From an uncultured bacterium (GTDB taxonomy: Bacteria; Acidobacteriota; Vicinamibacteria; Vicinamibacterales; UBA2999): a DNA stretch of 64,000 nucleotides. Each line of letters begins with the position of its first letter. The first letter of the stretch is position 1. Below, piece by piece: positions 4,752 through 53,004 of this stretch. The notes beneath the pieces were generated by a model, which was not told the DNA's origin, did no database searches, and worked only from the letters and a program-made list of their open reading frames with translations. The DNA lies in the NCBI GenBank assembly GCA_963923455.1, contig CAWULT010000005.1:3003-67002 (forward strand). Direction: 5' to 3'. A program made the position numbers and the translations under genes.

Positions 4752-4775
4752 GTCTCTTCCGCAAGCGAGGGAATC

Positions 4776-11405: not shown

Positions 11406-11450
11406 AACTCACGTCGGCCGCGCGGCGGCCGGACCCTTCGACACCGACTT

Positions 11451-22745: not shown

Positions 22746-22782
22746 CCCGCCGTCCACCCTTCCCAAGGAATCGAACGACATC

Positions 22783-24777
22783 ATGTGCGGGATCGCTGGA
22801 CAGGTTGGCCCGGCTGCGTGCGGGCGTGAGCCGCTGCTCACGATGATGGGCACGCTGACACACCGCGGACCCGACGAGGCTGGTCTGCTGCTGGCGCGAG
22901 GGCTCGCCTTCGGGCACCTGCGGCTCAGCATCGTCGACCTGCGGCACGGCCAGCAGCCGATGGCGACAGCAGACGGCCGGCACTGGATCGTCTTCAACGG
23001 CGAGATCTTCAACCACGTCGAGCTGCGCGTCGAACTGGAGGGCCTCGGGCACGTCTTCCGCACGCGGTGCGACACCGAGGTGATCCTGAACGCCTACCGC
23101 CAGTGGGGCCGCGACTGCCTGTCCCGCTTCAACGGGCAGTGGGCCTTCGCGCTGTGGGACCGGCAGGAAGACACGGTGTTCCTGGCCCGCGACCGCTTCG
23201 GCGTGAGGCCGCTCTTCTACAGCGTTCTCGCCGACGGCCGCACGCTGGTGTTCGCCTCGGAGATGAAGGCACTGCTGACGGATGCCCGCGTCCCGCGCGA
23301 GTGGGACACCGACGCCCTGCGGGACATCTTCGTCTCGTGGGTCACCCACGGCGAGCGGACGCCGATACGGGCCATTCGCCAGCTGCCCGCCGGCTGCTGG
23401 ATGGAGGTCACCCGCGAGGGGCACCGGGTGCAGCGCTACTGGGACGTGGACCTGTCACCGGATGCCGTGGACTGGTCCCGGCCGGAGGCGAGCTGGAGCG
23501 AGGAGCTTCGATCGACCCTGGACGAAGCCTGTCGAATCCGCCTGCGCGCGGACGTCACGGTCGGCACGTACCTCTCGGGCGGACTCGACTCGAGCATCAT
23601 CACCACGCTGTCGAAGCGGAACCACCAGCCGGACCTGATGACGTTCTCGCTGGCGTTCCGGGATGCGGGCTACGACGAGTCGGCGTTCCAGCAACTCGTC
23701 GCGGATCAGATCGGGACCGAACATCACACGGTGTCGGTCAGTCGCGAGCTCATCGCGGAGCGCTTCCGCCTGGCGATCTGGCACACCGAGACGCCCATGC
23801 ATCGAACGGCGCCCATTCCCTTGATGGAGCTCTCCGCCCTGGTGCGGAGCACCGGCCTGAAGGTGGTGCTGAGCGGGGAGGGCGCGGACGAGGTCTTCGG
23901 CGGCTACGACCAGTTCCGCGAGAACAAGATCCGCCGGTTCTGGGCGCGCGTGCCGACGTCGGCCTGGCGCAAGCGGCTGCTCGACCGGCTCGAGCCCAAC
24001 ATCGCGCGTTCGGGCCCGCGCACGCGGGCGTTCTGGTACGCCTTCTACCAGGAAGGGCTCCAGGCCACCGGTCGGCCCGCCTACTCCCACTATCCGCGGT
24101 GGCGCAACGGCGCCAGCCTGCTGCCGCTCATCTGCGCGGGTGACACACGGACGAGCGGCCCCTCGTGGATCGAGCACGTGGAGGCAACCGCGCCCGATGG
24201 CTTCGCCTCCTGGGACCCGCTGTCGCAGGCGCAGTACTGGGAGATCCGGCAGTTCCTCGCCGGGTACCTGTTGTCGTCGCAGGGCGACCGGGTCGCGATG
24301 GCGAACTCCGTCGAAGGGCGCTACCCGTTCCTGGACGCCAACGTGTTCGCGCTGTCGCGCCGGATTCCGCCGCGCCTGAAGATGCGCGTGCTGCAGGAGA
24401 AGTACCTCCTGAAGCGCACGTTCCAGTCCGACCTGCCGCCGGCGATCGTGGAGCGCAAGAAGTACCCGTATCGCGCGCCTGACGCGCTCGCCCTGTATCG
24501 CGGCGCGCTGCGCCGGCAGCTGCTCGACAGCCTGAACCCGGAGGCCGTGCAGCGCCGCGGCCTGTTCCATCCCGAGGGCATCCGGAAGCTGCTCGAGCGG
24601 GTGGACCGGACGGAGGACCCGTCCGCCAGGGACAACATGGCGCTCGTGCTGGTGTACTCGGCCCACACCTTCCACGAGCAGTTCATCGAAGGCAGGATGG
24701 AGACGTCCGCGCTGCCTCCGCTCAACACAGACGTCGATTTGACACACATCACGAACCAGGTGGAACGCGCCTCATGA
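22783..24777 (+). CDS. asnB: Asparagine synthase (glutamine-hydrolysing) family amidotransferase
   Basis: 664 aa. It has the MCGIAG N-terminal Cys nucleophile, HRGPDE, NGEIFN and a YLSGGLDSS PP-loop. The RBS AAGGAA lies upstream. Confidence 0.9.
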   Translation: MCGIAGQVGPAACGREPLLTMMGTLTHRGPDEAGLLLARGLAFGHLRLSIVDLRHGQQPMATADGRHWIVFNGEIFNHVELRVELEGLGHVFRTRCDTEVILNAYRQWGRDCLSRFNGQWAFALWDRQEDTVFLARDRFGVRPLFYSVLADGRTLVFASEMKALLTDARVPREWDTDALRDIFVSWVTHGERTPIRAIRQLPAGCWMEVTREGHRVQRYWDVDLSPDAVDWSRPEASWSEELRSTLDEACRIRLRADVTVGTYLSGGLDSSIITTLSKRNHQPDLMTFSLAFRDAGYDESAFQQLVADQIGTEHHTVSVSRELIAERFRLAIWHTETPMHRTAPIPLMELSALVRSTGLKVVLSGEGADEVFGGYDQFRENKIRRFWARVPTSAWRKRLLDRLEPNIARSGPRTRAFWYAFYQEGLQATGRPAYSHYPRWRNGASLLPLICAGDTRTSGPSWIEHVEATAPDGFASWDPLSQAQYWEIRQFLAGYLLSSQGDRVAMANSVEGRYPFLDANVFALSRRIPPRLKMRVLQEKYLLKRTFQSDLPPAIVERKKYPYRAPDALALYRGALRRQLLDSLNPEAVQRRGLFHPEGIRKLLERVDRTEDPSARDNMALVLVYSAHTFHEQFIEGRMETSALPPLNTDVDLTHITNQVERAS

Positions 24778-25037
24778 GCAACGTCGACACGAACGACCTG
24801 ATGAACCAGATCCGGGACCACATCTGCGGCACGATGCTGATCGGCCTGTCCGATCAGTCGATCGAGCCCGACGAGTCCCTCGTCCAGCGCGGTGTCGTGG
24901 ACAGCACCGGAGTACTGGAGCTGGTGGAGTTCCTGCAGCAGCGATTCGGCATCACGGTAATGGATGACGAAATCACGACCGATAACCTGGACACGCTGAA
25001 TTCCATCACGGCGTTCGTGCAGCGAAAGCTCGGATAG
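24774..25037 (+). CDS. Acyl/peptidyl carrier protein 1
   Basis: 87 aa. The start overlaps the asnB stop (ATGA). GVVDSTGVLELVEFLQQRFG contains the DS(T/L) phosphopantetheine attachment motif. Confidence 0.8.
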   Translation: MSNVDTNDLMNQIRDHICGTMLIGLSDQSIEPDESLVQRGVVDSTGVLELVEFLQQRFGITVMDDEITTDNLDTLNSITAFVQRKLG

Positions 25038-25083: not shown

Positions 25084-25338
25084 ATGGACTACAAGACTCC
25101 CCTCATCGAATTCATCAAGCAGGACATCCTGCACGGCCGCAACGTGCCGCTGGACGACGAGCAGGATCTGCTCAGCGCGGGTGTCCTGGATTCCCTGGGC
25201 ATCCTCCGCGTCGTGGCCTTCCTCGAGGAGCGGTTCGGCGTGCGCGTGCCGGACGAGGACGTCGTGTTCGAGAATTTCCAGAGCATCCGGGCGATGACCG
25301 ACTACGTGACGCAACAGAAGGCCGTCGGCAAGGCCTAG
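25084..25338 (+). CDS. Acyl/peptidyl carrier protein 2
   Basis: 84 aa. The motif is GVLDSLGILRVVAFLEERFG. It is paralogous to the preceding gene. Confidence 0.8.
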   Translation: MDYKTPLIEFIKQDILHGRNVPLDDEQDLLSAGVLDSLGILRVVAFLEERFGVRVPDEDVVFENFQSIRAMTDYVTQQKAVGKA

Positions 25339-25350
25339 CGTCGGCGCGCC

Positions 25351-26907
25351 ATGAGATACCTGCTGTCGCACGTCGTCGACGAGGCGGCCCGGACGCAGCC
25401 GACGCACGACGCCGTTCGGTTCTCGGGCCTGAGCCTCTCGTACGCGGAGCTCGCGCGCCGGAGCAACGGTCTGGCCCGGATCCTGGTCGACCGCGGGGTG
25501 CGCCGTGGAGACCGGGTCGGGATCTTCATGAACAAGAGCCTCGACTCGGCCGTGGCGATCCACGGCATCATGAAGGCCGGCGGCGCCTACGTGCCGCTCG
25601 ACCCCTTCGCGCCGCCGGCCCGCGTCGCCTTCGTCATTCGCGACTGCGGCATCCGCCACCTGGTCACCTCGGATCTGAAGCTCGATCAGTCGCAGCTGCT
25701 CGCCGAAGGGCTCGACCGGATGACCCTGGTCGGGGCCTCGCCGCGCGACGGGCACGACGCCGTCGGATGGGTCGAGGTGGAGGCCTCGGCGTCCGACTCG
25801 GCGCCGGCCATCGAGCTCACCGAGCAGGATCTCGCCTACATCCTCTACACGTCCGGATCCACCGGGACGCCGAAGGGGATCATGCACACGCATCGCAGCG
25901 GCCTGAGCTTCGCCGAGTGGGCCGCCGCCACCTACGGCCTGACGCCGTCGGATCGCGTCAGCAACCACGCGCCGCTGCACTTCGACCTGTCGACGTTCGA
26001 CTTCTTCGCGACGGCGGTGGCCGGGGCCACCACCGTGGTCGTGCCCGAGGCGCTCACGAAGCTCCCGGCCGACCTGGCCAGGCTGATGGCGAAGGAGCGG
26101 CTGACGGTCTGGTACTCGGTGCCGTTCGCGCTGATGCAGATGCTCGAACGGGGCAGCCTGGCGAAGCTGGATCTCTCGACGCTGCGGTGGTTGCTGTTCG
26201 CCGGCGAGGTGTTTCCCGTGAAGCACCTGCGCGAGCTGATGGCGGCGCTGCCGCACGTGCGCTTCAGCAACCTCTACGGACCCACCGAGACCAACGTCTG
26301 CACGTTCTACAACCTGCCGCCGACCCTGCCGCCCGGCGACGAGCCGATCTCCATCGGGCGCCCCTGCGAGAACGTCGAGTCGCTGATCGTCGACGAAGAC
26401 GGCCGGCCGGTTGCCGAGGGTGAGGCGGGCGAGCTGCTGATCCGGGGAGGGGTCGTGATGCGGGGCTACTGGGGACGGCCCGACCTCAACGAGAAGGGCT
26501 TCTTCCGACGGCCCGTGTTCGGCCGCCACTACGAGGACGTGTTCTACAGGACGGGAGACCTCGTCGAGCGCATGCCGGACGGCAACCTGACGTACCTGGG
26601 CCGGAAGGACCGGCAGGTCAAGACGCGCGGGTATCGGGTTGAGCTCGACGAGGTCGAGGCGGTGATCCTGTCGCTGGTCTCGATCGAAGAGGCGGCGGCA
26701 TTCGTCGTGCCGGATGGGCAGGGCAGCAACCTGATCGAGGCGGCGGTCACGGTGAAGGCCGGGTTCCAGCTGACGCCTGAGGCCGTGATGAACCATGCCT
26801 CAGCCAGGTTGCCGCACTATGCGGTGCCGGCGACGATTCGCGTGATGGAGGTCTTTCCACGGACGTCGACCGGGAAGATCGACCGTCGCGAGCTGCAGGC
26901 CCGCTAG
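25351..26907 (+). CDS. Free-standing adenylation enzyme (DltA / NRPS A-domain-like), copy 2
   Basis: 518 aa. Motifs are LAYILYTSGSTGTPKGIMHTH, HFDLSTFD (A4 with Asp), NLYGPTE, YRTGDLV, GRKDRQVKTRGYRVEL and PRTSTGKIDR. Confidence 0.85.
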   Translation: MRYLLSHVVDEAARTQPTHDAVRFSGLSLSYAELARRSNGLARILVDRGVRRGDRVGIFMNKSLDSAVAIHGIMKAGGAYVPLDPFAPPARVAFVIRDCGIRHLVTSDLKLDQSQLLAEGLDRMTLVGASPRDGHDAVGWVEVEASASDSAPAIELTEQDLAYILYTSGSTGTPKGIMHTHRSGLSFAEWAAATYGLTPSDRVSNHAPLHFDLSTFDFFATAVAGATTVVVPEALTKLPADLARLMAKERLTVWYSVPFALMQMLERGSLAKLDLSTLRWLLFAGEVFPVKHLRELMAALPHVRFSNLYGPTETNVCTFYNLPPTLPPGDEPISIGRPCENVESLIVDEDGRPVAEGEAGELLIRGGVVMRGYWGRPDLNEKGFFRRPVFGRHYEDVFYRTGDLVERMPDGNLTYLGRKDRQVKTRGYRVELDEVEAVILSLVSIEEAAAFVVPDGQGSNLIEAAVTVKAGFQLTPEAVMNHASARLPHYAVPATIRVMEVFPRTSTGKIDRRELQAR

Positions 26908-27113: not shown

Positions 27114-28679
27114 GTGAACAGCAAGCTCGACTATCTCGTCATTGGCGCTGGGCCGGCAGGCCTGCAGCTCGGCTACTACCTGCAGAAGAACGCCCGCAGC
27201 TACCTGATCCTGGAACGCGGCCGGGGAGCCGGCACGTTTTTCGAGACGTACCCACGGCACCGGATGCTCATCTCGATCAACAAGGTGCACACCGGCACCG
27301 ACGACCGTGACGCGAACCTGCGGTGGGACTGGAATTCACTGCTCACCGACGGCGACGATCCGCGCTTCGGCGCCTACACGACTGAGTACTTTCCCGGCGC
27401 CGACGACCTCGTCCGGTACCTGCGAGACTTCGCCGCCCGCCACGGGCTCAGGGTGCAGTACGACACCGATGTGACGAGGGTTGCGCGCGATGCCGATGGA
27501 ACCTTCGTGGTGACCGACCGCGCCGGGCGCACCTACAGGGCCAGCCGGCTGTTCGTTGCGTCCGGGTTCACGAAGGAGAACGTGCCGACGTTCCCCGGCG
27601 CCGAGCTGTGCGAGCGCTACGGCACGCATGACACCGACGCGGCGCGCTTCACGAACAAGCGGGTGCTGATTCTCGGCAAGGGCAACTCGTCGTTCGAGAC
27701 TGCCAACCATCTCACCGGGACGGCGGCCGCGATTCACGTCTGCAGCCCCGAGTCCATCCAGATGGCGTGGCAGACCCACTACGTGGGCAACCTTCGGGCG
27801 GTGAACAACAACTTCCTCGACACGTACCAGCTCAAGTCACAGAACACCGTGATCGACGGGACGGTCACGAAGGTGGAGCGGCTGGGCGACCAGCTGGCCG
27901 CGCACATCGCCTACTCGCACGCCGCCGGCCAGACGACCGTACGGCTCTACGACGCGATCATCGCTTGCACTGGATTCAAGTTCGACCCGTCGATCTTCGA
28001 CGCGTCCTGCCAGCCCGAGCTGGTGTACGAAGGCAAGTTCCCGGCGCAGACCGCCGAGTGGGAGTCGGTGAACGTGCCTGGCCTCTACTTCGCAGGCACG
28101 CTGATGCACGCCTGTGACTTCCGCCGGACGATGTCGGGCTTCATCCATGGCTTCCGGCACAACGTGCAGGTGATGAGCCGCCTGTTCGAGATGAAGTACC
28201 ACGGGCGCGAGTGGCCGTACACGGAGTGCCCGGCGACGCCCGACGGCGTCCTCGTGGCGATCATGAATCGGCTGCGTCACGGCGCCGGCATCTACCTGCA
28301 GCCGGGCTTCCTGCGCGACGTCATCGTGGTGGACGAGGCATCCGGGCAGGCGCGGTGCTACACGGACATGCGGAACGACTACATCCCCGGGAGCTTCATC
28401 GGGACGTCCCACCACTACTACACGGTGAGCCTGGAGTACGGCCACTTCGACGGCGACCCGTTCGCGGTCGAACGGAACCCCGATCCGATGAAGGGCGGCG
28501 AGGCGTCGTACCTGCATCCGGTGATTCGACGGTACGACCGGGCGGAGCTGAAGGCCGAGTATCACATCCAGGACGATCTGGAGAACGAGTGGTGGCTCGA
28601 GGAGTATGCGCGGCCCGCGCGCGCGTGGTTCGACGCGCAGCTGAGCCGTGGCGCCGTGCCGGCTGGGGCGGCGCGCTGA
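27114..28679 (+). CDS. Two-dinucleotide-binding-domain flavoprotein (FMO / pyridine-nucleotide-disulfide-oxidoreductase-like)
   Basis: 521 aa with a GTG start after GAGGAAGGA. Motifs are DYLVIGAGPAGLQLG (FAD) and RVLILGKGNSSFE (second Rossmann). The C-terminal ~150 aa are unassigned. Confidence 0.65.
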   Translation: MNSKLDYLVIGAGPAGLQLGYYLQKNARSYLILERGRGAGTFFETYPRHRMLISINKVHTGTDDRDANLRWDWNSLLTDGDDPRFGAYTTEYFPGADDLVRYLRDFAARHGLRVQYDTDVTRVARDADGTFVVTDRAGRTYRASRLFVASGFTKENVPTFPGAELCERYGTHDTDAARFTNKRVLILGKGNSSFETANHLTGTAAAIHVCSPESIQMAWQTHYVGNLRAVNNNFLDTYQLKSQNTVIDGTVTKVERLGDQLAAHIAYSHAAGQTTVRLYDAIIACTGFKFDPSIFDASCQPELVYEGKFPAQTAEWESVNVPGLYFAGTLMHACDFRRTMSGFIHGFRHNVQVMSRLFEMKYHGREWPYTECPATPDGVLVAIMNRLRHGAGIYLQPGFLRDVIVVDEASGQARCYTDMRNDYIPGSFIGTSHHYYTVSLEYGHFDGDPFAVERNPDPMKGGEASYLHPVIRRYDRAELKAEYHIQDDLENEWWLEEYARPARAWFDAQLSRGAVPAGAAR

Positions 28680-28814
28680 CGACGAGAGTCGAGTGAGGTG
28701 GAACCCATCCGAGCCGGGCGGGTACCGGGGCGGTCACACGAGAGGCCAGGGGATCGGACACCGAACCCGCCGGGGCCTGAGGGGCAAGGCAGACCTTGCT
28801 GGGGAGAGCGCGCA

Positions 28815-30359
28815 GTGACGACGACAATCCCTGAGACGAGTCGGATTCTGGTGATCGGTGGTGGCCCCGCGGGCGCCAGCGCGGCCACGTTGCTGGCGCG
28901 GCAGGGGTACGAGGTGACCGTTTTGGAACGGGACTACTTCCCGCGGTATCACATCGGCGAGTCGCTCCTGCCGTCGGTCCTCGAGATCCTCGATCTGATG
29001 GGGCTGCGCGAGCAGATGGAGAACTCGGGCTTCGTCAAGAAGCACGGTGCCTTCCTCGAGTGGGGGTCGGAGCGCTGGGGGCTGAACTTCGGCGAACTGG
29101 GAGAAGGGCGCACGCACGCCTTCCAGGTGGAGCGGGCAGACTTCGACAAGATGCTGCTCGATCATGCGGCACGCTGTGGCGTCCAGGTGTTCGAAGGCGT
29201 GGAGGTGCAGTCGCTCGAGTGCGACGGTGACCGCCCGCGCGCGGCGAACTGGGCGATGAAGGCGCAGGCCGAGGGGCAGGTCAACGGCCGGGCGCGCGAC
29301 ATCGCGGCGAGCGGCCGCATCGCGTTCGACTACCTGATCGACGCGTCCGGGCGTGCTGGCGTGATGGCGACGAAGTACCTGCAGAACCGCAAGTACCACA
29401 AGATCTTCCAGAACGTCGCCGTGTGGGGTTACTGGAAGGGCACCGATCGGATGGTGACGGGGCGCGAGGGCGACATCGCCGTGGGCTCGGTCGAGAACGG
29501 CTGGATCTGGGCCATTCCGCTGCGGGACGACACGACGAGCGTGGGCCTGGTCATGCACCGCGACACCGTGGTCAAGCGCGGCGCCGCGTCGCTCGAGCAG
29601 CTCTACTTCGACGCCCTCGACGAGTCGCCCATCATCAAGCGCGCCATCGCGCCCGGAAGGCTCGAATCGAAGCTCCACACCGAGCAGGACTACTCCTACG
29701 CGTCACAGGTGTTCAGCGGTCCCGGCTTCTTCATGGCCGGTGACGCGGCGGCCTTCCTCGATCCACTGCTCTCGAGCGGTGTCCACCTGGCAACCTACAG
29801 CGGGCTGCTGGCAGCCGCGTCCATCGGCAGCACGATCCGGGGCGAGGTCGACGAGGCCGAGGCCGCGCAGTTCTTCGAGAAATGCTACCGCCAGGCGTAC
29901 CTGCGCTTCCTGGTGTTCCTGTCGGCCTTCTACGACGTCGGCCGCAAGAAGGAGTCGTACTTCTGGGAAGCGCAGCGCCTGACCGAGGACGACGCCGAGA
30001 CCAAGGACCTCAACGGTGCCTTCCTGAAGCTGGTGACGGGCGTGAAGGACATGGCCGACGCCAAGACCAACGCGCACCGGCTGGTGCTCGACACGATGAC
30101 CAAGCGCATCGACGAGAACCTGAAGTTCCGCAAGGACAAGATGAAGCTCGCCTCGCTCGAGGGCGAGGAAAAGGACAAGGCGAGGGCCAACGCGCGCTTC
30201 TTCAGCTCGGTCGAAGGGCTGTTCGCGCTGAGTGCCGAGGAGGCCATCGAGGGCATCTACGTCGTCACCAGGCCGGTGCTCGGTCTGGCACGGGTCGACC
30301 AGCGCGCGGTCGCAGACGAGGCGCTGGCGGGGGCCGGGCGGGCTGAGGCGGTGCACTGA
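28815..30359 (+). CDS. Flavin-dependent halogenase (CndH/PltA-like, non-tryptophan type)
   Basis: GTG 28815 is preceded by GGGGAGAG. Motifs are ILVIGGGPAG (28857-28874), FPRYHIGESLLP (28938-28973), GWIWAIP = WxWxIP (29499-29519) and FLDPLLSSG = FxxPxxSxG (29754-29780). Confidence 0.8.
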   Translation: MTTTIPETSRILVIGGGPAGASAATLLARQGYEVTVLERDYFPRYHIGESLLPSVLEILDLMGLREQMENSGFVKKHGAFLEWGSERWGLNFGELGEGRTHAFQVERADFDKMLLDHAARCGVQVFEGVEVQSLECDGDRPRAANWAMKAQAEGQVNGRARDIAASGRIAFDYLIDASGRAGVMATKYLQNRKYHKIFQNVAVWGYWKGTDRMVTGREGDIAVGSVENGWIWAIPLRDDTTSVGLVMHRDTVVKRGAASLEQLYFDALDESPIIKRAIAPGRLESKLHTEQDYSYASQVFSGPGFFMAGDAAAFLDPLLSSGVHLATYSGLLAAASIGSTIRGEVDEAEAAQFFEKCYRQAYLRFLVFLSAFYDVGRKKESYFWEAQRLTEDDAETKDLNGAFLKLVTGVKDMADAKTNAHRLVLDTMTKRIDENLKFRKDKMKLASLEGEEKDKARANARFFSSVEGLFALSAEEAIEGIYVVTRPVLGLARVDQRAVADEALAGAGRAEAVH

Positions 30360-30361
30360 CG

Positions 30362-31468
30362 ATGGCCAGGCGGCTGCTGCTGCTGAACGGGGTCGCGATC
30401 ATCTTCGTGATCCTGTTCCACACGACGGGCTACGGCTTCACCGCGCTGTTCTTCTGGGCGCACCGCTACCGTCCCGTCGCCGCGCCGAACTTCGACGCGG
30501 CCGGCACCGCCCCCTATTGGGCTCTCCGGCTGATGGAGGAGCTGGTCTGCGTGGCCATTCCGATCTTCCTGTTCGTCTCCGGCTACTTCGTGTCGGTGAT
30601 GGCCGGGCGGACGCGCGTGGTCGGCGCGGGCACGATGCGCACGCGGATCGCGGCGCTGATACCGCCGTACCTCCTCTGGTCCGGCATCGTGCTGCTGGGC
30701 CTGGCCCTCGAGGGGCGGGTGTATCCACTCAGGCGATACGCGGTGATGCTGGCGACCGGCTCGACTAACCCGAACTACTACTACGTCCCCCTGCTGGTCC
30801 AGCTCTACCTCGTGGCGCCCGTCGTCGTCCGGCTGCTGGCGTGGAACTGGCGGGTGACGCTGGCCGTGACGGGACTCATGCAGGCCTGCGTCTACGGCCT
30901 GCAGTATGCAATCGTGCTGGCGCCACAGAGCCCCACGGTCCTGCTGGCCGCCACCCTGGCGCAGAAGTGGGTCTTCCTCGTGCACCTCTTCTGGTTCACG
31001 TTCGGAGCCTTCGTCGGGCTGGAGGCCCAGCGATTCCGGACGCTGGTCGACCGCGCCCGGCCATTCCTCGTGCCGGCCACGGTCGTCTTCTTCGCGCTGG
31101 GCGTGATCGAGTGGGAGATGCTCCTCGCCTGGTCCGGGCAGCCCTGGACCGAGAACCGGACGACGCTGGTCGACGGCGCCTACTCGGCGTCGTTCCTGAT
31201 GTCGTTCCTGGCGTACGCCGAGATCCCGGCGCCGTGGTCGTCCTGGCTGACGACGCTCGGCAGCCGGTCCTTCGGGATCTACCTGGTACACGGGCTCGTG
31301 ATGGAGTACTTCTCGCGCGGGCTGTATCACCTCGCGCCATGGGCGCTCGGCCGGCAGGCCCTCTTCCTGCCCGCATTGATCGCGGTCGGCATGGCCGTAC
31401 CGCTGATGCTGATGGACGTCGTGAACCGCTCGCCGGCGCGGCGTGCCTATGCGTACGTGTTCGGCTAG
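30362..31468 (+). CDS. Acyltransferase family 3 (AT3, OafA/WecH-like) polytopic membrane O-acyltransferase
   Basis: 368 aa, about 10 TM helices. It begins MARRLLLLNGVAIIFVILFH (conserved His in TM1) and starts 3 nt after the halogenase stop. Confidence 0.8.
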   Translation: MARRLLLLNGVAIIFVILFHTTGYGFTALFFWAHRYRPVAAPNFDAAGTAPYWALRLMEELVCVAIPIFLFVSGYFVSVMAGRTRVVGAGTMRTRIAALIPPYLLWSGIVLLGLALEGRVYPLRRYAVMLATGSTNPNYYYVPLLVQLYLVAPVVVRLLAWNWRVTLAVTGLMQACVYGLQYAIVLAPQSPTVLLAATLAQKWVFLVHLFWFTFGAFVGLEAQRFRTLVDRARPFLVPATVVFFALGVIEWEMLLAWSGQPWTENRTTLVDGAYSASFLMSFLAYAEIPAPWSSWLTTLGSRSFGIYLVHGLVMEYFSRGLYHLAPWALGRQALFLPALIAVGMAVPLMLMDVVNRSPARRAYAYVFG

Positions 31469-31525: not shown

Positions 31526-32545
31526 ATGAGCAGGATTCTTGTCACGGGCGGAGCGGGCTTCATCGGGTCGCACGTCGCCGAGGCACTGGTGGCGCGCGGG
31601 CACGACGTGCTCGTGCTGGACGATCTCAGCGGGGGCTTCGAGGAGAACGTGGTCCCCGGCGCACGGTTCGTCGAGGGCAGCATCAACGACGTCGCGCTGG
31701 TCGACCGGCTGTTCGCGCAGCACCGCTTCGAGTACGTGTTCCACCTCGCGGCCTACGCCGCCGAGGGGCTGAGCCACTTCATCAAGCGGTTCAACTACAC
31801 GAACAACCTGATCGGAAGCGTCAACCTGATCAACGCCTCGATCAACACTGGCGTCAGGTGCTTCGTGTTCACGTCGTCAATCGCGGTGTACGGCACCAGC
31901 CCCGAGCTGCCGATGACGGAGGAGACGCCGGCGCGCCCGGAAGATCCCTACGGCATCGCGAAGTATGCCGTCGAGCAGGAGCTGCACGCCTGCAAGGCGA
32001 TGTTCGGCCTCGACTCGATCGTCTTCCGGCCGCACAACGTCTACGGCGAGCGACAGAACATCGGCGACAAGTACCGCAACGTGGTCGGCATCTTCATGAA
32101 CCAGTTGCTGCAGGGCAAGCCGATGAGCGTCTTCGGCGATGGCTCACAGACGCGCGCGTTCAGCTACATCGGCGAGGTGGCACCGATCATCGCCGAGTCG
32201 ATCGACGTGCCAGCCGCCTACAACCAGACGTTCAACATCGGCGCCGATGAACCGTACGCCGTGAAGGACCTGGCCCTGGCCGTCGCCAGGGCGATGGGCG
32301 TGGCGCCGAACATCGCGCACCTGCCGGCCAGGAACGAGGTGCTCGACGCCTACTCGTCGCACGAGAAGGTGTCGCGGGTGTTCGGTCAGCACCGGAAGTA
32401 CTCACTCGACGAGGGCCTGGCGCGCATGGCCGCGTGGGTGAAGCAGCACGGCGCCCGCGCCAGCAGCGAATTCGGCGACATCGAGGTGATGAAGAACTTT
32501 CCCGCGGCCTGGGCGCCATCGGCGACGCCGGCGGCGCGAGGCTGA
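31526..32545 (+). CDS. NAD-dependent sugar-nucleotide epimerase/dehydratase (extended SDR)
   Basis: Motifs are ILVTGGAGFIGSHV and the catalytic PYGIAKYAVE (YxxxK). The RBS GGAGAGG lies upstream. Confidence 0.85.
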   Translation: MSRILVTGGAGFIGSHVAEALVARGHDVLVLDDLSGGFEENVVPGARFVEGSINDVALVDRLFAQHRFEYVFHLAAYAAEGLSHFIKRFNYTNNLIGSVNLINASINTGVRCFVFTSSIAVYGTSPELPMTEETPARPEDPYGIAKYAVEQELHACKAMFGLDSIVFRPHNVYGERQNIGDKYRNVVGIFMNQLLQGKPMSVFGDGSQTRAFSYIGEVAPIIAESIDVPAAYNQTFNIGADEPYAVKDLALAVARAMGVAPNIAHLPARNEVLDAYSSHEKVSRVFGQHRKYSLDEGLARMAAWVKQHGARASSEFGDIEVMKNFPAAWAPSATPAARG

Positions 32546-32562: not shown

Positions 32563-33468
32563 GTGGCCCAGCCCTTCGTCATCTCGGTCATCCTGAACAC
32601 GAACCGGCGCGACGACACGCTCGAGTGTCTCGCGTCGCTGGTGGCGTCCGACTATGGCCACCACAAGGCGATCGTCCTCGACAACGCCTCGACCGACGGT
32701 TCGGTCGAGGCGATCCGGTCACGGTTCCCGCAGGTCGAGATCGTCCGGTTGACCGATAACCTCGGGTATGCCGGCAACAACAACGTGGGCATCGCGCACG
32801 CGATGGCGCAGGGCGCCGACTGGGTGTTCGTGCTCAACGAGGACACGGTGCTGGCGCCGGACTGCCTGCGCAGGCTCGTCGAGACGGGTGAGGGGGATCC
32901 GCGGATCGGCGTGGTCGGGCCGATGGTGTACCACCACGACGAGCCCGACGTCATCCAGTCCGCTGGCGGCGCCCTGAGCCGCTACTGGAACTCGGTGCAC
33001 ATCGGCCAGAACGTCCGTGACGCCGGGCAGTACGTCCAGCCCCACGACGTCGACTGGATTTCCGGGTGCGCCATCATGGTCCGGCGCGGCGTGATCGACG
33101 CCGTCGGCGTGATCGACGTCCGCTACTTCTACTTCTGGGAGGAAACGGAGTGGTGCATTCGCGCCGGCCGGGCCGGCTGGCGGATCGTCCAGGTGCCGGC
33201 CGCCAGGCTGTGGCACAAGGGCGTGCAGCGCGACTACCGGCCGAAGCCGACCGTGACGTACTACGCCACGCGGAACCGGCTGCTGACGCTGGCGAAGCAC
33301 CGGGCGCCGCTGCACGTGTGGCTGGTCGTCGTGCTGCAGATCGCGCGGACCCTGACCAGTTGGACCGTGAAGCCGAGGTGGCGGGAGATGCGCGAGCACC
33401 GGGCCGCCATGCTGCGCGGCGCCACCGATTTCCTTCGGGCCAGGTGGGGTGGCCCCGTCCGGCTGTGA
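32563..33468 (+). CDS. GT2 glycosyltransferase
   Basis: Probable GTG start at 32563, just downstream of the epimerase stop. Motifs are FVISVILNTNRRDDTLECL, IVLDNASTDGS, NLGYAGNNNVG and YFYFWEETEWCIR. Confidence 0.8.
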   Translation: MAQPFVISVILNTNRRDDTLECLASLVASDYGHHKAIVLDNASTDGSVEAIRSRFPQVEIVRLTDNLGYAGNNNVGIAHAMAQGADWVFVLNEDTVLAPDCLRRLVETGEGDPRIGVVGPMVYHHDEPDVIQSAGGALSRYWNSVHIGQNVRDAGQYVQPHDVDWISGCAIMVRRGVIDAVGVIDVRYFYFWEETEWCIRAGRAGWRIVQVPAARLWHKGVQRDYRPKPTVTYYATRNRLLTLAKHRAPLHVWLVVVLQIARTLTSWTVKPRWREMREHRAAMLRGATDFLRARWGGPVRL

Positions 33469-33493
33469 CCGGACTCGCGGCGATGCACCAGTC

Positions 33494-34348
33494 ATGACTC
33501 CACTTCCGCCCTCGGTCGTCTACACGCCGGGCTCTCAGGTCCGGTCCCCACTGTCGCTGCTCGCGGCGATCTGGCGCGACATGATCGAGTCGCACGAGCT
33601 GTCGTGGCGCCTCTTCGTCCGCGACGTCTCCGCCCAGTACCGCCAGAGCCTGCTCGGCGTCGTCTGGGCGTTCGTGCCGCCGATCGTCACGAGCCTGATC
33701 TTCGTCGTGCTGCAGTCGCGCAACGTCGTGGACTTCGGCGAGGTCGACATCCCGTATCCGGTGTACGTGCTGGTCGGGGCCCTGCTCTGGCAGATGTTCG
33801 TCGAGGCGATCAACGCGCCGCTCAAGACCGTCACGGCCGCCAGGCCGATGCTGGCGAAGATCAACTTCCCCCGGGAGGCGCTCGTCGTCTCCTCGTTCTA
33901 CATGGTGCTCTACGGGGTGGCGATGAAGCTGGTCGTGATCCTGGCGGTCCTGCTGATCTTCGGCGTGCCGTTGCACTGGACGCTGCCGGCGGCGCTCGGA
34001 CCGATCCTGATCCTCGTCTTGTGCGGCCTGTGCCTGGGGCTGCTCGTCACGCCGTTCGGCATGCTCTACGGTGACGTCGCCTCGGGCCTGCCCGTGGCGA
34101 CGCAGGTGCTCTTCTTCGTCACGCCGGTCGTCTACGTGCCGCCGCAGACGTTTCCGTTCTCGCTCATCGGCACCATCAATCCGGTGAGCCCGCCACTGGT
34201 CGCGAGCCGCGACCTGCTGACGAAAGGCGTGCTGACCAACCCCGAGGCCCTGGCCGGACTGACGGGCGTGGTCCTCGTCGGCCTGGCCGTGGCCCTCGTG
34301 ATCTACCGGGCCGCGATGCCGATTCTCATCGAACGGACGAGCGCGTGA
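33494..34348 (+). CDS. ABC-2 type polysaccharide exporter permease (Wzm/KpsM/TagG-like)
   Basis: About 285 aa with about 6 TM helices. It lies immediately upstream of, and overlaps, the ATPase gene. Confidence 0.8.
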   Translation: MTPLPPSVVYTPGSQVRSPLSLLAAIWRDMIESHELSWRLFVRDVSAQYRQSLLGVVWAFVPPIVTSLIFVVLQSRNVVDFGEVDIPYPVYVLVGALLWQMFVEAINAPLKTVTAARPMLAKINFPREALVVSSFYMVLYGVAMKLVVILAVLLIFGVPLHWTLPAALGPILILVLCGLCLGLLVTPFGMLYGDVASGLPVATQVLFFVTPVVYVPPQTFPFSLIGTINPVSPPLVASRDLLTKGVLTNPEALAGLTGVVLVGLAVALVIYRAAMPILIERTSA

Positions 34349-35592
34349 TGCAGGACACGCTGGTGACCGTCGACGGGGTCGGCAAGAAGTTCTGCCGCAG
34401 CCTGAAGCGCTCGCTGTGGTACGGGTTGCAGGACCTCGGGTCCGAGCTGGCCGGCCGCGGCGATCGGCCGCGCGAACTGCGCAAGGGCGAGTTCTGGGCC
34501 GTGAAGGACGTCTCCTTCCGGCTTCACCGCGGCGAAACGCTGGGCCTCATCGGCCACAACGGTGCGGGCAAGACGACCCTGCTCAGGATGCTCACGGGCC
34601 TGATCAAGCCCGATGCGGGGCGCATCGAGGTGGTGGGGCGCCTCCAGGCGCTCATCGCGCTCGGCGCCGGGTTCAACCCGCTGTTGACCGGCCGTGAGAA
34701 CATCTACGTCAACGCGTCGATCCTGGGCATTCCGAAGCAGCAGATCGACCGCATCTTCGACCGCATCGTCGATTTCGCCGGCGTCGAGGAGTTCATCGAC
34801 ATGCCGGTGCAGAGCTACAGCTCCGGCATGGCCGTGCGGCTGGGCTTCTCGATCGCGGCGCACCTTGACCCCGACATTCTGCTCGTGGACGAGGTCCTGT
34901 CGGTCGGCGACCTGGCGTTTCGCACCAAGTGCCAGGTGCGCATCAACGAGATGAAGGAGCGGGGCGTCGCCATCATCCTGGTGTCGCACAACCTCCACAC
35001 CATCAGCCACGTCTGCACGCGCGGCGTGGCGATCGACCGCGGCCGGGTCCTGTTCGACGGTGACACCGAGACCGCGATCGACGTCTATCGTGAGTCGCTG
35101 ATCGCGAGGAACGGCAAGGCCGCGGCCGAGGGGCTCCGCGGCGGGACGGGCGAGATCCGGATCGCCCGCGTCGAGGTGCTCGGCCGCGACGGCACTCCGA
35201 CGCCCGTGCTGGGCGTCGGCGACTTCGTGACGCTGCGGCTGCACTATCACGCGCACCAGCCCGTTGTCGATCCGGTGTTCAACCTGGCGGTGCACGTGCT
35301 GAACGGCAACCAGGTCACCGGCGTTCGCACCGACGTCGACGGGCTGCGCCTCGGGCGCCTCGAGGGCGAGGGATACGTCGACGTCGAGATTCCGCACCTG
35401 AACCTGCTGCCGAACGTGTACACGGTGGACGCGGTGGCGTTTCACGCCGACGGCGTGACCTTCTACGATCGGCTCAACGCCGCCGCGAGCCTCAAGATCC
35501 GGGGCGGGCTGCCCATCAACGGCACGGTCTACCTGCCCCATGAATGGCGGCGTGGAGACGTCCGGCAGGACGCGCTGGCGGGGTCACGCTGA
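34345..35592 (+). CDS. ABC polysaccharide exporter ATPase with a C-terminal extension (Wzt/TagH-like)
   Basis: Walker A is GHNGAGKTTLLRML, the signature is YSSGMAVRLGFS and Walker B is ILLVDEVLSVGD. An extra ~165-aa beta-rich C-terminal domain follows from about 35095, as in Wzt carbohydrate-binding domains. Confidence 0.9.
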   Translation: MMQDTLVTVDGVGKKFCRSLKRSLWYGLQDLGSELAGRGDRPRELRKGEFWAVKDVSFRLHRGETLGLIGHNGAGKTTLLRMLTGLIKPDAGRIEVVGRLQALIALGAGFNPLLTGRENIYVNASILGIPKQQIDRIFDRIVDFAGVEEFIDMPVQSYSSGMAVRLGFSIAAHLDPDILLVDEVLSVGDLAFRTKCQVRINEMKERGVAIILVSHNLHTISHVCTRGVAIDRGRVLFDGDTETAIDVYRESLIARNGKAAAEGLRGGTGEIRIARVEVLGRDGTPTPVLGVGDFVTLRLHYHAHQPVVDPVFNLAVHVLNGNQVTGVRTDVDGLRLGRLEGEGYVDVEIPHLNLLPNVYTVDAVAFHADGVTFYDRLNAAASLKIRGGLPINGTVYLPHEWRRGDVRQDALAGSR

Positions 35593-35593
35593 C

Positions 35594-36802
35594 GTGTCGA
35601 ACGAACCCGTGTTCATCGTGGGCGTCCAGCGGTCGGGCACGACGCTCCTGGCGGCGATGCTGGCCGCGCACAGCCGCCTGAGCTGCGGGCCCGAGACGCA
35701 CTTCTTCCGGCGGCTCGCCGCCGCAGACGTCGCCCGGCTCTGCCAGCGGGCGACGTGGCCGGAGGCGGCCGCGGACTTCCTGGCCTCGATCACCCACGTC
35801 GGCTTCTCGAGCGACGCCCGGGTGCCGCTGCTGGCCAAGTATCAGCTCGATCCGGCCGTGGTCCGCGCGTACCTCGCGGCGCACGAGCCGCGGGTCGCGA
35901 GCATCCTGGGCGCGGTCACCGAGCCGTACATGCTGGCCCGCCAGAAGGCCCGGTGGGTCGAGAAGACGCCCGATCACCTGCTGCACCTGCCGGCGATCCG
36001 CGAGCACTTTCCGCGGTCGCCGATCATCCGCATCGTCCGCGACCCGCGCGACGTGTCGCTGTCCCTGATGAACGTGCCCTGGGGGGTGCGCTCCTTCGCC
36101 GAGGGCCTCTTCTACTGGGAGCGCCTCGACCGCGCGAGCCGGCAGTTCTTCACCACCGACACGGGCTCCCTGACCGTCCGCTTCGAGGACCTGGTGTCGG
36201 CGCCCGAGGCGACGCTGGGCCGCATCTGCGACTTCATCGGCGAGCGCTTCGAGGAGGGGATGCTCGACACGTCGAGCACCGGCGCCGAGATCAACGCCCG
36301 CAACGTGCCGTGGAAGGAGAAGGTCGCCAAGGCCGTCGACCGCAGCCGCGTCGAGGCCTGGCGGGCCAGCGTGTCGCCGCGGGAAGACCGCATGGCCGAG
36401 GCCCTGCTCGGGGACCGGCTGCAGGCGTTCGGGTACGCCCGCGACCATGCCTTCTCGCACGTGGCCGATGTACTGCCGTCGATTGCGCTCGCGGAACGGT
36501 ACCCGGGGGCCATCGAGACCCTCGCCGCAGAGGGCGTCCGGTTCTGGCGTGAGCGTCCGGACGAGCCCACGAGCGTCACGGTGTACCTGGGCGACCCGGG
36601 CAGCCGCGACTGGTTCGGCGGCGCCGCCCCGATCGGCCCGGCGCGTGTCCTCGCAGACGTGGCGCGGGCGGCGGCATCGGGACGACGCCTGTACTGGGTC
36701 ACGGACACGGCCGCGAACCAGTGGACGGGTTCGGTTCCGTTCCTGCTGAAGACGTGTCTCACGCCCTTCCGCGTACAAGGGTGCGCGCCGGTGAGCGCGT
36801 GA
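35594..36802 (+). CDS. PAPS-dependent sulfotransferase
   Basis: GTG 35594 lies 1 nt after the wzt-like stop (alternative ATG at 35540). The 5'-PSB-like motif is FIVGVQRSGTTLLAAML and the 3'-PB-like motif is IIRIVRDPRDVSLSL. Confidence 0.8.
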   Translation: MSNEPVFIVGVQRSGTTLLAAMLAAHSRLSCGPETHFFRRLAAADVARLCQRATWPEAAADFLASITHVGFSSDARVPLLAKYQLDPAVVRAYLAAHEPRVASILGAVTEPYMLARQKARWVEKTPDHLLHLPAIREHFPRSPIIRIVRDPRDVSLSLMNVPWGVRSFAEGLFYWERLDRASRQFFTTDTGSLTVRFEDLVSAPEATLGRICDFIGERFEEGMLDTSSTGAEINARNVPWKEKVAKAVDRSRVEAWRASVSPREDRMAEALLGDRLQAFGYARDHAFSHVADVLPSIALAERYPGAIETLAAEGVRFWRERPDEPTSVTVYLGDPGSRDWFGGAAPIGPARVLADVARAAASGRRLYWVTDTAANQWTGSVPFLLKTCLTPFRVQGCAPVSA

Positions 36803-40324: not shown

Positions 40325-40371
40325 GGTCCCAGCCCCAGACACGACGAGAGGAGGATAGCGCTACGCCCGGG

Positions 40372-42204: not shown

Positions 42205-42221
42205 GAGTCGGGACCGGACAC

Positions 42222-44410: not shown

Positions 44411-44420
44411 CAGGCTGGCG

Positions 44421-45659: not shown

Positions 45660-45741
45660 CGCGAGGCCGGACGCGCTCCGGAACCCCGGCGGCGACACGG
45701 TCCAGGTCAGGGAGACGAAGGCCGCGCTCGAGCGGATCGGC

Positions 45742-52633: not shown

Positions 52634-53004
52634 CCCACGTAGTCCCCGCCCACCGCACCTCCATGCAGGCCGGCGTGACAGAAGCCGACGGCGCTGCATC
52701 GTGTCGAGACAGTGCCGACGGCCGCGCCGTTTCGTCCGGGCGGCCGGCCTGGCGGCCAAGTCCAAGAAATCTCCGGCATTTCCTTCGTCTTCCGCCGCAA
52801 TGCCGGACGGGCACTCTTCTTGCACGCTTCCCCTTCGAAATTCGGTGTCGAGGCCGTAGACTGACGAGTGGCGGGTAGTTGCGTCCATTCGGACGTCGGG
52901 GCGACCGACCGATTCTGAAAACGCCGTTACAGAGTCGCCGGGCCCGCCGAACGCGGCCCGCCAATTCGGGCAGTCTGGGCCGGAGCCGGACTCTCTTCGG
53001 AGGA

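Follow-up and report, generated by a model that had tools for sequence, protein, structure and literature searches.

We analysed a 64,000-nucleotide stretch of DNA (hereafter the window) from an uncultured bacterium of the Vicinamibacterales (GCA_963923455.1, contig CAWULT010000005.1, positions 3,003 to 67,002), most of which is occupied by a roughly 58-kb, almost entirely co-directional polysaccharide locus. A 514-aa flavin-dependent halogenase (FDH) is encoded at 28815-30359 (+), and an AT3 membrane acyltransferase gene (AT3-1, 30362-31468, +; Pfam Acyl_transf_3, 95.9 bits) starts 2 nt after its stop codon (TGA-CG-ATG). Upstream of the halogenase lie AMP-ligase 1 (21180-22745, +), an AsnB-type glutamine amidotransferase (AsnB1, 22783-24777, +), two carrier proteins, ACP1 (24774-25037, +) and ACP2 (25084-25338, +), and a second stand-alone adenylation enzyme, AMP-ligase 2 or ProA (25351-26907, +). 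Between ProA and the halogenase we found a class B flavin monooxygenase-like gene (27114-28679, +; Pfam Pyr_redox_3, 163 bits), which gave only weak PDB matches to type II FMOs and appears to be a window-specific insertion, since it had no orthologue in any fetched locus and relatives have an AT3 gene at this position.

Downstream of AT3-1 lies an NAD-dependent sugar epimerase/dehydratase gene (31526-32545, +; Pfam Epimerase, 180 bits), a conserved partner with 77-79% identity in relatives. This is followed by a GT2 glycosyltransferase gene and the Wzm (ABC-2) and Wzt (ABC ATPase with a Wzt_C domain) genes (together 32563-35592, +), the predicted export module of the glycan, which are syntenic in all glycan-linked relatives; the GT2 start may be either 32434 or 32563. 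Next are genes for a sulfotransferase, a PMT_2 (GT-C) protein, a GT2 and a 245-aa sulfotransferase-like protein (together 35540-40324, +), and then a second AsnB-type amidotransferase (AsnB2, with Pfam matches on ORF 39427-42204) and a GT1 (together 40420-43232, +; start approximate), with orthologues at 50-63%. A conserved gene of unknown function with weak lyase/GH127-like matches and a further GT1 gene (together 44172-46797, +) precede an acyl-CoA-dehydrogenase-fold flavoprotein gene (ACAD, 46803-47948, +; start at ATG 46803). Two further AT3 genes, AT3-2 (50423-51508, +; 115 bits) and AT3-3 (51521-52633, +; 78.9 bits), complete the set of three AT3-only proteins of about 365 aa, and the locus also contains Wza.

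The halogenase belongs to the non-tryptophan branch

Translation of 28815-30359 (+) gave an uninterrupted protein carrying four motifs: GGGPAG at residues 15-20 (28857-28874), FPRYHIGESLLP at residues 42-53 (28938-28973), GWIWAIP at residues 229-235 (29499-29519) and FLDPLLSSG at residues 314-322 (29754-29780). The GTG at 28815 follows a Shine-Dalgarno-like string, GGGGAGAG, and matches the N-termini of homologues and of the 514-aa database gene call, whereas an upstream in-frame GTG at 28698 is less likely to be the start. The protein matched Pfam Trp_halogenase (PF04820) with E = 1.9e-40 and 139.5 bits against a cutoff of 21, and FAD_binding_3, DAO and NAD_binding_8 were also hit. In a sequence search of the PDB, the best matches were CndH (5.7e-77), RadH (3.4e-75), FasV (8zop; 3.3e-74) and CmlS (8.8e-67), scoring 263, 257, 254 and 229 bits, respectively, compared to 142-156 bits for PltA, Mpy16 and ChlB4, below 40 bits for Trp halogenases and 45 bits for a GG reductase. 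Consistent with this placement, an AlphaFold model (pTM 0.81) retrieved only FDHs at the top of a Foldseek search.

In addition, a lysine (K76) aligns with CndH K76, probably the catalytic residue of that enzyme. Alignment of 30 family members showed that K76, the glycine-rich residues G15, G16, G17, P18 and G20, the residues W230, W232, I234 and P235 of the WxWxIP motif, and F314 to G322 are all invariant. These results confirm the halogenase described in the earlier note, which had called its N-terminal string typical of the non-tryptophan FDH branch, and support the note's inference that a halogenated aromatic or heteroaromatic acyl group is built on a carrier protein and transferred to the glycan. 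Every testable element held, with caveats: the two carrier protein genes lie 3.5-4 kb upstream rather than about 2 kb, and a tyrosyl substrate, which the note had mentioned among those of related enzymes, is not supported.

The locus encodes a predicted proline-to-pyrrole carrier pathway

The genomic context is stronger than the earlier note recognised. ProA passes the NCBIfam AA-adenyl-dom model (408 bits, cutoff 317), and its best single-domain PDB hit is PltF (6o6e) at 320 bits, compared to 257 bits or less for other single A-domains, which suggests that it is an L-prolyl-carrier-protein ligase. It has an amino-acid-type pocket (D235, K517), and the pocket code, tentatively read off a GrsA fragment as DLFYLALVCK, is identical in the orthologues of seven of the fetched loci containing halogenase relatives or the associated genes (designated by L numbers; here L001, L005, L006, L066, L089, L090 and L091), although this string was not found in the searchable literature. 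ACP2 is a type II peptidyl carrier protein (PP-binding, 36.9 bits) with a DSL serine motif and PDB hits to type II PCPs, DltC, PltL and PigG, and its gene is always adjacent to ProA in relatives.

The ACAD gene, 16 kb downstream of the halogenase and not noticed in the earlier note, is PigA/RedW-like and is predicted to encode an L-prolyl-S-carrier dehydrogenase that makes pyrrolyl-2-carboxyl-S-ACP. It scored 447 bits with the NCBIfam PigA model and 408 bits with the RedW L-prolyl-PCP dehydrogenase model, against 301 bits for the next ACAD family, but both scores fall below the equivalog cutoffs of 500 and 650. In relatives this gene lies directly upstream of ProA-ACP, and orthologues of the conserved unknown and GT1 genes lie directly upstream of ACAD in L089 and L090 (51-58%). 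Together these genes resemble the classic pathway from proline to pyrrolyl-2-carboxyl-S-carrier, embedded with three AT3 genes in an ABC-transporter/Wza polysaccharide locus that also has sulfotransferases.

A second carrier module of unknown substrate is formed by AMP-ligase 1, AsnB1 and ACP1. AMP-ligase 1 passes the NCBIfam model TIGR03098 ('acyl-CoA ligase, exosortase A system-associated'; 651.6 bits, cutoff 592.35). AsnB1 matches Pfam Asn_synthase/GATase_7 and NCBIfam asn_synth_AEB (474 bits), with the XrtA/PEP-CTERM amidotransferase model scoring 423 bits, below its cutoff, while ACP1 is a PP-binding protein (26.9 bits) with a DST serine motif. No flavin reductase was identified in the window, and it contains no other FDH.

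The halogenase is linked to the pyrrole cassette in many related loci

We next asked whether this gene set recurs. The same set was recovered in at least 20 metagenomic or MAG loci in four or more architectures, and of 46 distinct family loci with at least 8 kb of flank, 20 are linked to orthologues of these genes while 26 show no linkage within the available flank. Type II loci (L001, L005, L006, L009, L010 and the P0004 contigs) read ligase1-AsnB-ACP-ACP-ProA-AT3-HAL-AT3-epimerase-GT2-Wzm-Wzt, where HAL is the halogenase, and on the L006/L094 contig the ACAD lies 17 kb downstream, as in the window, where the distance is 16.4 kb. Type I loci (L007, L008, L014-L018, L022, L027, L048, L052 and L092) read PMT_2-GT2-245aa-HAL-AsnB2-GT1, with ACAD-ProA-ACP lying about 12 kb downstream on the same contig in L091/L092 and a 70%-identical ACAD at the edge of L008. 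L089 reads ACAD-MT-ProA-ACP-AT3x3-epimerase-HAL, whereas L076 has three FDHs interleaved with five AT3 genes. Type I and type II FDHs form one clade.

An orthologue of AT3-1 follows the halogenase in L001, L005, L006, L009 and L010, orthologues of AT3-2 are found next to the FDH in L045, L050 and L076, and orthologues of AT3-3 are present in L007, L014, L066/L089 and L076, while epimerase orthologues occur in L006, L009, L010 and L066/L089. Notably, relatives place PltA/ChlB4/Mpy16-like (379-388 bits) and Bmp2-like (234 bits) FDHs directly after ACAD-ProA-ACP, so that halogenation of the carrier-bound pyrrole is evidently part of this system, but it is not settled that the CndH-like enzyme is the one acting on the pyrrole. 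In contrast, the Anaerolineae locus L090 has the glycan genes plus ACAD-ProA-ACP-AT3 with no FDH within 10 kb.

A possible role in polysaccharide decoration

Based on these results, we favour, with moderate confidence, a model in which the halogenase is a tailoring enzyme in a polysaccharide-decoration pathway. In this model, ProA loads L-proline onto ACP2 and the PigA/RedW-like flavoprotein oxidises prolyl-S-ACP2 to pyrrolyl-2-carboxyl-S-ACP2. The CndH-like halogenase would then, in the cytoplasm, use FADH2, O2 and halide to make a lysine-held hypohalite equivalent (K76) and chlorinate or brominate the electron-rich pyrrole ring while it is still on the carrier. Finally, one or more of the three AT3 enzymes would move the (halo)pyrrole-2-carbonyl group from the phosphopantetheine thioester onto a sugar hydroxyl of the glycan made and exported by the adjacent GT/Wzm-Wzt/Wza genes, which is probably also sulfated. 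The product chemistry is entirely inferred, as are the substrates of the ligase and the halogenase, the use of a carrier-bound donor by AT3 enzymes, the glycan acceptor and the halide. In support of the model, no other gene in the locus predicts an FDH-competent (electron-rich aromatic) substrate. However, only acyl-CoA donors have been demonstrated for AT3 proteins (PMC9558356).

The main alternative, which we consider possible but less likely, is that the CndH-like enzyme acts in the same glycan pathway on a substrate other than the pyrrole, in which case the pyrrole ester of the window would be unhalogenated. The enzyme belongs to the CndH/RadH/FasV/CmlS branch and not to the PltA/Bmp2/Mpy16 pyrrolyl-carrier branch (263 bits compared to 118-156 bits), and members of the former appear to act mostly on phenolic or enol substrates. 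In L091, L094 and L076, where PltA-like and Bmp2-like FDHs are present next to the cassette, the CndH-like enzyme is a third, separately placed halogenase and may therefore have a different substrate. Furthermore, in L045 and L050 the FDH follows ACP-ligase1-like-AsnB1-like-x-AT3 with no ProA seen, and in type I loci it is sandwiched between a sulfotransferase-like gene and AsnB2. On the other hand, nothing in the locus predicts a phenolic building block, and the substrate of AMP-ligase 1 is unknown, so this reading has no positive chemical candidate. In addition, L089 and the L091/L092 contig carry the CndH-like FDH with ProA, ACP and ACAD but show no ligase1/ACP1/AsnB1 module in 21-29 kb, and in the window and its closest relatives the halogenase gene lies between ProA-ACP and the AT3 genes.

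It is unlikely that the product is instead a small secreted glycoside or a lipid-linked oligosaccharide, with the surrounding polysaccharide genes being only neighbours or supplying sugars. AT3 proteins do also acylate small glycosylated antibiotics (CarE, CmmA and Asm19; PMC9558356), pyrrole-2-carboxyl transfer to a sugar seems to be known only from small molecules (clorobiocin, coumermycin), and we found no report of a pyrrole-acylated polysaccharide. Nevertheless, in four or more architectures the cassette is interleaved with Wzm/Wzt (carrying a Wzt_C glycan-binding domain), Wza, GT-C, GT1/GT2 and amidotransferase genes rather than merely adjacent to them, no PKS/NRPS scaffold genes are present, and the gene array is co-directional with overlapping or near-abutting genes.

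That the halogenase is an unrelated passenger acting on a free small molecule, as its many orphan homologues in Chloroflexota presumably do, is very unlikely: although the family is very large (more than 5,900 proteins at E<=1e-20) and the 26 unlinked loci show no glycan or acyl genes nearby, linkage is retained across 58-71% identity, GC contents of 46-68% and at least four gene orders, AT3-1 nearly abuts the halogenase, and orphans may still work with an unlinked cassette, which also exists in Anaerolineae. It is equally improbable that the protein is an FDH-fold monooxygenase or reductase resembling QhpG or the geranylgeranyl reductases, although these are secondary hits (NCBIfam QhpG monooxygenase 204 bits, cutoff 240; GG-reductase superfamily 114 bits) and no activity data exist, since the solved QhpG structure scores only 52 bits, halogenases outrank all monooxygenases by more than 200 bits in the sequence search and top the fold search, and the aligned lysine, the WxWxIP motif, which probably blocks substrate access to the flavin, and FxxPxxSxG are invariant.

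More tentatively, Acidobacteriota (Vicinamibacterales), Chloroflexota (Anaerolineae) and other environmental bacteria might make a previously unrecognised class of surface or extracellular polysaccharide carrying covalently bound chloro- or bromo-pyrrole-2-carboxyl esters, halogenated by up to three different FDHs and delivered by AT3 enzymes that take a carrier-protein thioester rather than acyl-CoA. We found no literature precedent for a pyrrole-acylated or halogenated bacterial polysaccharide, and this would be the first enzymatically halogenated bacterial glycan, the first carrier-dependent AT3 system and possibly a polymer-bound source of natural organohalogen in soils and sludge. Bacterial polysaccharide decorations known so far are small aliphatic groups such as acetyl, succinyl, pyruvyl, sulfate and amino acids, and a heteroaromatic, halogenated ester would have consequences for charge, hydrophobicity, UV absorbance, phage or predator recognition and resistance to degradation. 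It would also move the proline-to-halopyrrole machinery, so far a hallmark of antibiotics such as pyoluteorin, prodigiosin and clorobiocin, into cell-envelope biology. The halogenase and the predicted prolyl-carrier dehydrogenase each belong to families with thousands of members, and the carriers of the gene set include Vicinamibacterales and Anaerolineae, which are common in soils, sediments and wastewater granules.

Comparison with known systems

The closest solved relative is CndH, the chondrochloren halogenase of Chondromyces crocatus (PDB 3e1t; 'variant B' FDH), which matched best (262.9 bits, aligned over residues 3-413) and, like RadH, FasV and CmlS, has the same fold. CndH and the window's enzyme share the GxGxxG, lysine, WxWxIP and FxxPxxSxG motifs. 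There is a long C-terminal region beyond the catalytic core, modelled at low confidence. However, the family studied here is a separate, very large environmental clade, its strongly conserved C-terminal 130 residues have no counterpart in the solved structures, and the gene sits in a glycan locus and not in a PKS/NRPS cluster, with a pyrrole rather than a phenol as the predicted substrate. The pyrrole module of pyoluteorin and prodigiosin biosynthesis, PltF (or PigI/RedM), PltL (PigG/RedO), PltE (PigA/RedW) and PltA, has the same predicted enzyme set. Here, however, the only FDH in the window is not of the PltA clade, so that the window would work like this pathway without being a canonical member in this respect, the predicted dehydrogenase gene is 16 kb away from the ligase and carrier genes, and AT3 and glycan genes are present instead of a PKS or condensation enzyme to take up the pyrrole.

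AMP-ligase 1, AsnB1 and ACP1 recall the TIGR03098 ligase, TIGR03108 amidotransferase and ACP of XrtA/PEP-CTERM (exosortase A) EPS loci, which are likewise an uncharacterised carrier-based module. That described set has no prolyl-dehydrogenase or halogenase component, and none of the 40+ window proteins scanned, which left a few short gaps, matched an exosortase (EpsH/XrtA) family. The presence of AT3 genes in a glycan locus is as for O-antigen and EPS acetylation, but a heteroaromatic acyl group would be new for the AT3 O-acyltransferase family (OafA/Oac/CarE/CmmA).

The aminocoumarin (clorobiocin, PMC11218499; coumermycin) CloN1-N7 system, in which a pyrrolyl-2-carboxyl group appears to be transferred from a carrier protein to the 3'-OH of the sugar noviose, is probably the only precedent for a carrier-made pyrrole-2-carboxylate ending up as an ester on a sugar. 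There the acceptor is a small-molecule antibiotic, the pyrrole is methylated and not halogenated, and transfer seems to use soluble acyltransferase and alpha/beta-hydrolase proteins (CloN2/CloN7), not AT3 membrane proteins. The overall logic of our model is that of D-alanylation of teichoic acids by the Dlt system (DltA/DltC/DltB/DltD), in which a stand-alone adenylation enzyme loads a small carrier protein and a polytopic membrane acyltransferase passes the acyl group to a cell-surface glycopolymer. Here the membrane enzyme is AT3 and not MBOAT, the acyl group would be oxidised and halogenated on the carrier before transfer, and the predicted acceptor is a polysaccharide and not teichoic acid. 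In line with this parallel, ProA and ACP2 both hit DltA and DltC models.

The halogenase gene and its setting in a polysaccharide locus

Window 28815-30359 (+) translates without interruption into a 514-aa protein carrying GGGPAG (residues 15-20), FPRYHIGESLLP (42-53), GWIWAIP (229-235) and FLDPLLSSG (314-322), each at exactly the nucleotide coordinates reported in the earlier note, which had proposed a flavin-dependent halogenase (FDH). The GTG at 28815 follows a GGGGAGAG ribosome-binding-like string and matches the N-termini of homologues, whereas an upstream in-frame GTG at 28698 is less likely to be the start. The protein scores 139.5 bits on Pfam Trp_halogenase, against a cutoff of 21. 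In a search of all PDB sequences, the best matches were CndH (5.7e-77), RadH, FasV/8zop and CmlS, followed by the pyrrolyl-carrier halogenases Mpy16, ChlB4, PltA and Bmp2 at 118-156 bits, while tryptophan halogenases scored below 40 bits and geranylgeranyl reductase scored 45 bits. In that alignment, K76 of the query sits opposite CndH K76, and K76, the WxWxIP residues and the whole F314-G322 stretch are invariant in a 30-sequence family alignment. Consistent with this, an AlphaFold model (pLDDT 75, pTM 0.81) retrieved only FDHs at the top of a Foldseek PDB search. The earlier observation is confirmed, and neither of the features that the note had named as evidence against it, a missing lysine or placement with UbiH/GG-reductase enzymes, applies. 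Judged by these scores, the gene is a bona fide FDH of the CndH-type branch.

The window has 68% GC and, from about 560 to 58,500, forms an almost entirely co-directional gene array. In order, this array contains a Wzz/tyrosine-kinase gene, glycosyltransferases (GTs), a B12-radical-SAM gene, Wzy and an initiating sugar transferase, followed by two Wza genes and an SIS isomerase, and then by AMP-ligase 1, AsnB1, ACP1, ACP2 and AMP-ligase 2. Next come a flavin monooxygenase (FMO), the halogenase, AT3, an epimerase and a GT2, and then Wzm, Wzt (with a Wzt_C domain), a sulfotransferase, PMT_2 (GT-C), a GT2, a 245-aa sulfotransferase-like protein, AsnB2 and a GT1. The array continues with an unknown gene, a GT1 and an acyl-CoA-dehydrogenase-like (ACAD) gene, and finally a Big_9/LamG protein, two more AT3 genes, an unknown gene, a GT1 and a GT2. 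The AT3 gene next to the halogenase starts 2 nt after the halogenase stop codon, and the two carrier proteins lie 3.5-4 kb upstream, rather than about 2 kb as the earlier note had stated.

Neighbouring genes resemble a pyrrolyl-carrier pathway

We next examined the genes surrounding the halogenase. AMP-ligase 2 (hereafter ProA) passes the amino-acid-adenylation model, and its best single-domain PDB match is PltF, the L-proline-[L-prolyl-carrier-protein] ligase, at 320 bits. In contrast, all other single A-domains score 257 bits or less, and the LgrA entries rank higher only because two domains are summed. ACP2 is a type II PCP with a DSL serine and hits DltC, PltL and PigG. The ACAD gene (46803-47948) scores best on NCBIfam PigA (447 bits) and RedW "L-prolyl-[peptidyl-carrier protein] dehydrogenase" (408 bits), which is 100-150 bits above any other ACAD family, although below the strict equivalog cutoffs. 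A ligase, a carrier, an ACAD-fold dehydrogenase and an FDH together constitute the established proline to pyrrolyl-2-carboxyl-S-carrier to halopyrrole logic of pyoluteorin, prodigiosin, clorobiocin and the Bmp pathway.

Anchoring provisionally on a GrsA fragment, we read the ten pocket residues of ProA as DLFYLALVCK. This code is identical in the orthologues of L001, L005, L006, L066, L089, L090 and L091 (L numbers denote the recovered loci), with a single F-to-L change in L009, but the code string was not found in the searchable literature. Proline specificity and dehydrogenase function rest on similarity. A tyrosyl or other phenolic carrier-bound substrate, which the earlier note had entertained, is not supported, since ProA is PltF-like with a non-Tyr pocket code and no aromatic-acid or tyrosine-modifying genes were found. 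Hits to DltA also led us to consider a small aliphatic amino acid, as in D-alanylation, as the cargo of ACP2, but this was outweighed by the PltF and PigA/RedW matches and by the PltA/Bmp2-type neighbours found in relatives. No flavin reductase was identified in the window.

A second carrier module is present at 21180-25037 (+), comprising AMP-ligase 1, an AsnB-type amidotransferase and ACP1. AMP-ligase 1 passes the curated cutoff of TIGR03098, "acyl-CoA ligase, exosortase A system-associated", although no exosortase gene was seen in the window. The same module lies at the end of an Anaerolineae locus, L090 (19865-21146). In addition, a 521-aa class B flavin monooxygenase-like gene (27114-28679 (+); Pyr_redox_3, weak similarity to type II FMOs) lies between the predicted prolyl ligase and the halogenase. 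It has no orthologue in any fetched locus, and relatives have an AT3 gene at this position. It could further oxidise the pyrrole/proline unit or be an unrelated insertion.

The gene set recurs in several architectures

The halogenase belongs to a very large family of more than 5,900 proteins at E<=1e-20, of which the top 120 are 59-72% identical. The closest members (68-72%) come from Vicinamibacterales MAGs and soil or sediment metagenomes. A scan of genome contigs with the single protein returned only one locus, L005, a near-duplicate of L001. Using BLAST-guided, non-overlapping gene selection in the recovered loci, we found four recurrent architectures.

The first, type II, is that of the window, with the order Wza-Wza-SIS-ligase1-AsnB-ACP-ACP-ProA-AT3-HAL-AT3-epimerase-GT2-Wzm-Wzt (HAL, halogenase), and is found in L001, L005, L006, L009, L010 and the two P0004 contigs (P numbers denote database gene calls). 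On the L006/L094 contig, the PigA-like gene lies 17 kb downstream of the halogenase, compared with 16.4 kb in the window. The second, type I, has the order Wzm-Wzt-...-PMT_2-GT2-245aa-HAL-AsnB2-GT1-GT1-GT2 and is found in L007, L008, L014-L018, L022, L027, L048, L052 and L092/L093. Because L007 and L008 showed the halogenase between the 245-aa gene and AsnB2 with no ACP in the flank, we considered whether the halogenase is linked to the glycan module but not to carrier proteins. We rejected this for three reasons: a 70%-identical PigA-like gene sits at the edge of L008, L091 and L092 are one contig on which ACAD-ProA-ACP follows about 12 kb downstream, and the contig of the close type II relative (L006/L094) has the same layout as the window.

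The third architecture, in L066/L089 (GC 47%), reads AsnB2-GT1-GT1-GT2-...-ACAD-methyltransferase-ProA-ACP-AT3x3-epimerase-HAL-GT2. Class I SAM methyltransferases (407-440 aa) are inserted in the cassette in some relatives, either between ACAD and ProA or after the epimerase (L089 11215-12438 and the P0004 contigs), where they may methylate the pyrrole or the sugar; the window has none at these positions. Between L089 and the window, the epimerase (79%), the predicted prolyl-carrier dehydrogenase (74%) and the predicted prolyl ligase (63%) are highly conserved across a 20-point GC difference and between Acidobacteriota and Chloroflexota, which suggests lateral spread of the module. In the fourth group, L045 and L050 have ACP-ligase1-like-AsnB1-like-x-AT3-HAL, and L076 has three FDHs interleaved with five AT3 genes.

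Of 46 distinct family loci with at least 8 kb of flank, 20 carry orthologues of the glycan or acyl genes and 26 do not. The unlinked loci are mostly of GC 43-58%, like the one identified Chloroflexota example (L003/L004, GC 49%). In a neighbour-joining tree, the type I and type II enzymes form one clade, while the other linked loci sit in more distant clades. The PigA-like dehydrogenase family is likewise large and 71-85% conserved. In the Anaerolineae genome represented by L090, it lies in the same glycan context (...x404-GT1-ACAD-ProA-ACP-AT3-GT2-sulfotransferase...), with no FDH within 10 kb.

Relatives carry additional halogenases

On the L091/L092 contig, ACAD-ProA-ACP is followed directly by two more FDHs (L091 13063-15760), one Bmp2-like (234 bits) and the other ChlB4/PltA/Mpy16-like (388, 379 and 378 bits). 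The close type II relative, L094, has a PltA-like FDH (11178-12440) right after its ACAD, 70% identical to that of L091, and L076 has both types (1-1218 and 4686-6077), giving up to three FDH types per glycan locus. These are canonical pyrrolyl-S-carrier halogenases, so halogenation of the carrier-bound pyrrole is evidently part of this system. In contrast, a tblastn search revealed no second FDH in the window, which has lost, or never had, these enzymes. Instead, its ACAD is followed by a Big_9/cadherin-like/LamG secreted-type protein (48296-50356 (+)) with orthologues next to the cassette in L091 (51%) and L094, which may be a lectin or adhesin for the decorated glycan.

A possible pyrrole-based decoration of the glycan

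Given that the locus encodes PltF-like, PCP and PigA/RedW-like proteins together with three AT3 proteins, we infer, in the absence of chemical or expression data, that proline is converted to pyrrolyl-2-carboxyl-S-ACP2 and halogenated, and that AT3 enzymes transfer the acyl group to the glycan exported by Wzm/Wzt and Wza. We consider it somewhat more likely than not that the CndH-like enzyme of the window is itself the pyrrole halogenase. A less likely but possible alternative is that it halogenates another, unidentified substrate of the same pathway. This version is favoured by the fact that its solved relatives are CndH/RadH-type rather than pyrrolyl-carrier halogenases, by the existence of dedicated pyrrole halogenases in relatives, and by its position adjacent to the ligase-1 module in L045 and L050. 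The other readings, namely a small-molecule product, a passenger gene and a non-halogenating enzyme, are unlikely.

Known AT3 donors are acyl-CoAs only (PMC9558356). A carrier-protein donor would therefore be new, and mechanistically analogous to DltC to DltB in teichoic-acid D-alanylation. The enzyme kinds are all known, but the combination of a pyrrole-forming carrier cassette, FDH(s) and AT3 inside an ABC-transporter/Wza glycan locus with sulfotransferases is not known to us. We did not find it in the searchable literature, and searches for pyrrole-carboxylated or halogenated polysaccharides likewise returned nothing relevant. A 2024 study of Sphingomonas EPS in J Bacteriol mentions both a halogenase and an exosortase, but the halogenase there was a single transposon hit in an unlinked Trp halogenase gene. 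The nearest precedent for a carrier-made pyrrole-2-carboxylate esterified to a sugar is clorobiocin/coumermycin, a small-molecule case that appears to use soluble transferases. The locus predicts a new class of glycan decoration, possibly organohalogen-bearing, in abundant but poorly studied environmental phyla.

Accessory genes of the locus

The glycan is probably also sulfated, since the window contains two sulfotransferase-like genes (35540-36802 and 39587-40324 (+)), one a clear Sulfotransfer_3 and the other encoding the 245-aa protein with only a P-loop match, whose counterpart directly precedes the halogenase in type I relatives. A B12-binding radical SAM enzyme (4776-6506 (+); best NCBIfam match HpnJ-like, 207 bits, far below cutoff) sits inside the polysaccharide locus, has a 62% orthologue in L045, and may catalyse C-methylation or ring chemistry on a sugar. 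Two large (846 and 885 aa), paralogous-looking proteins with only a DUF5060 match are encoded at 15542-18082 (+) and 59500-62157 (-), one inside the locus and one just beyond its end on the opposite strand, and may be glycan-processing hydrolases. Finally, a 400-aa protein with no Pfam or NCBIfam match (52879-54081 (+)) has 57-63% orthologues in L050 (two copies) and L076 and a 39% orthologue in L008, and is an unknown that travels with the system.
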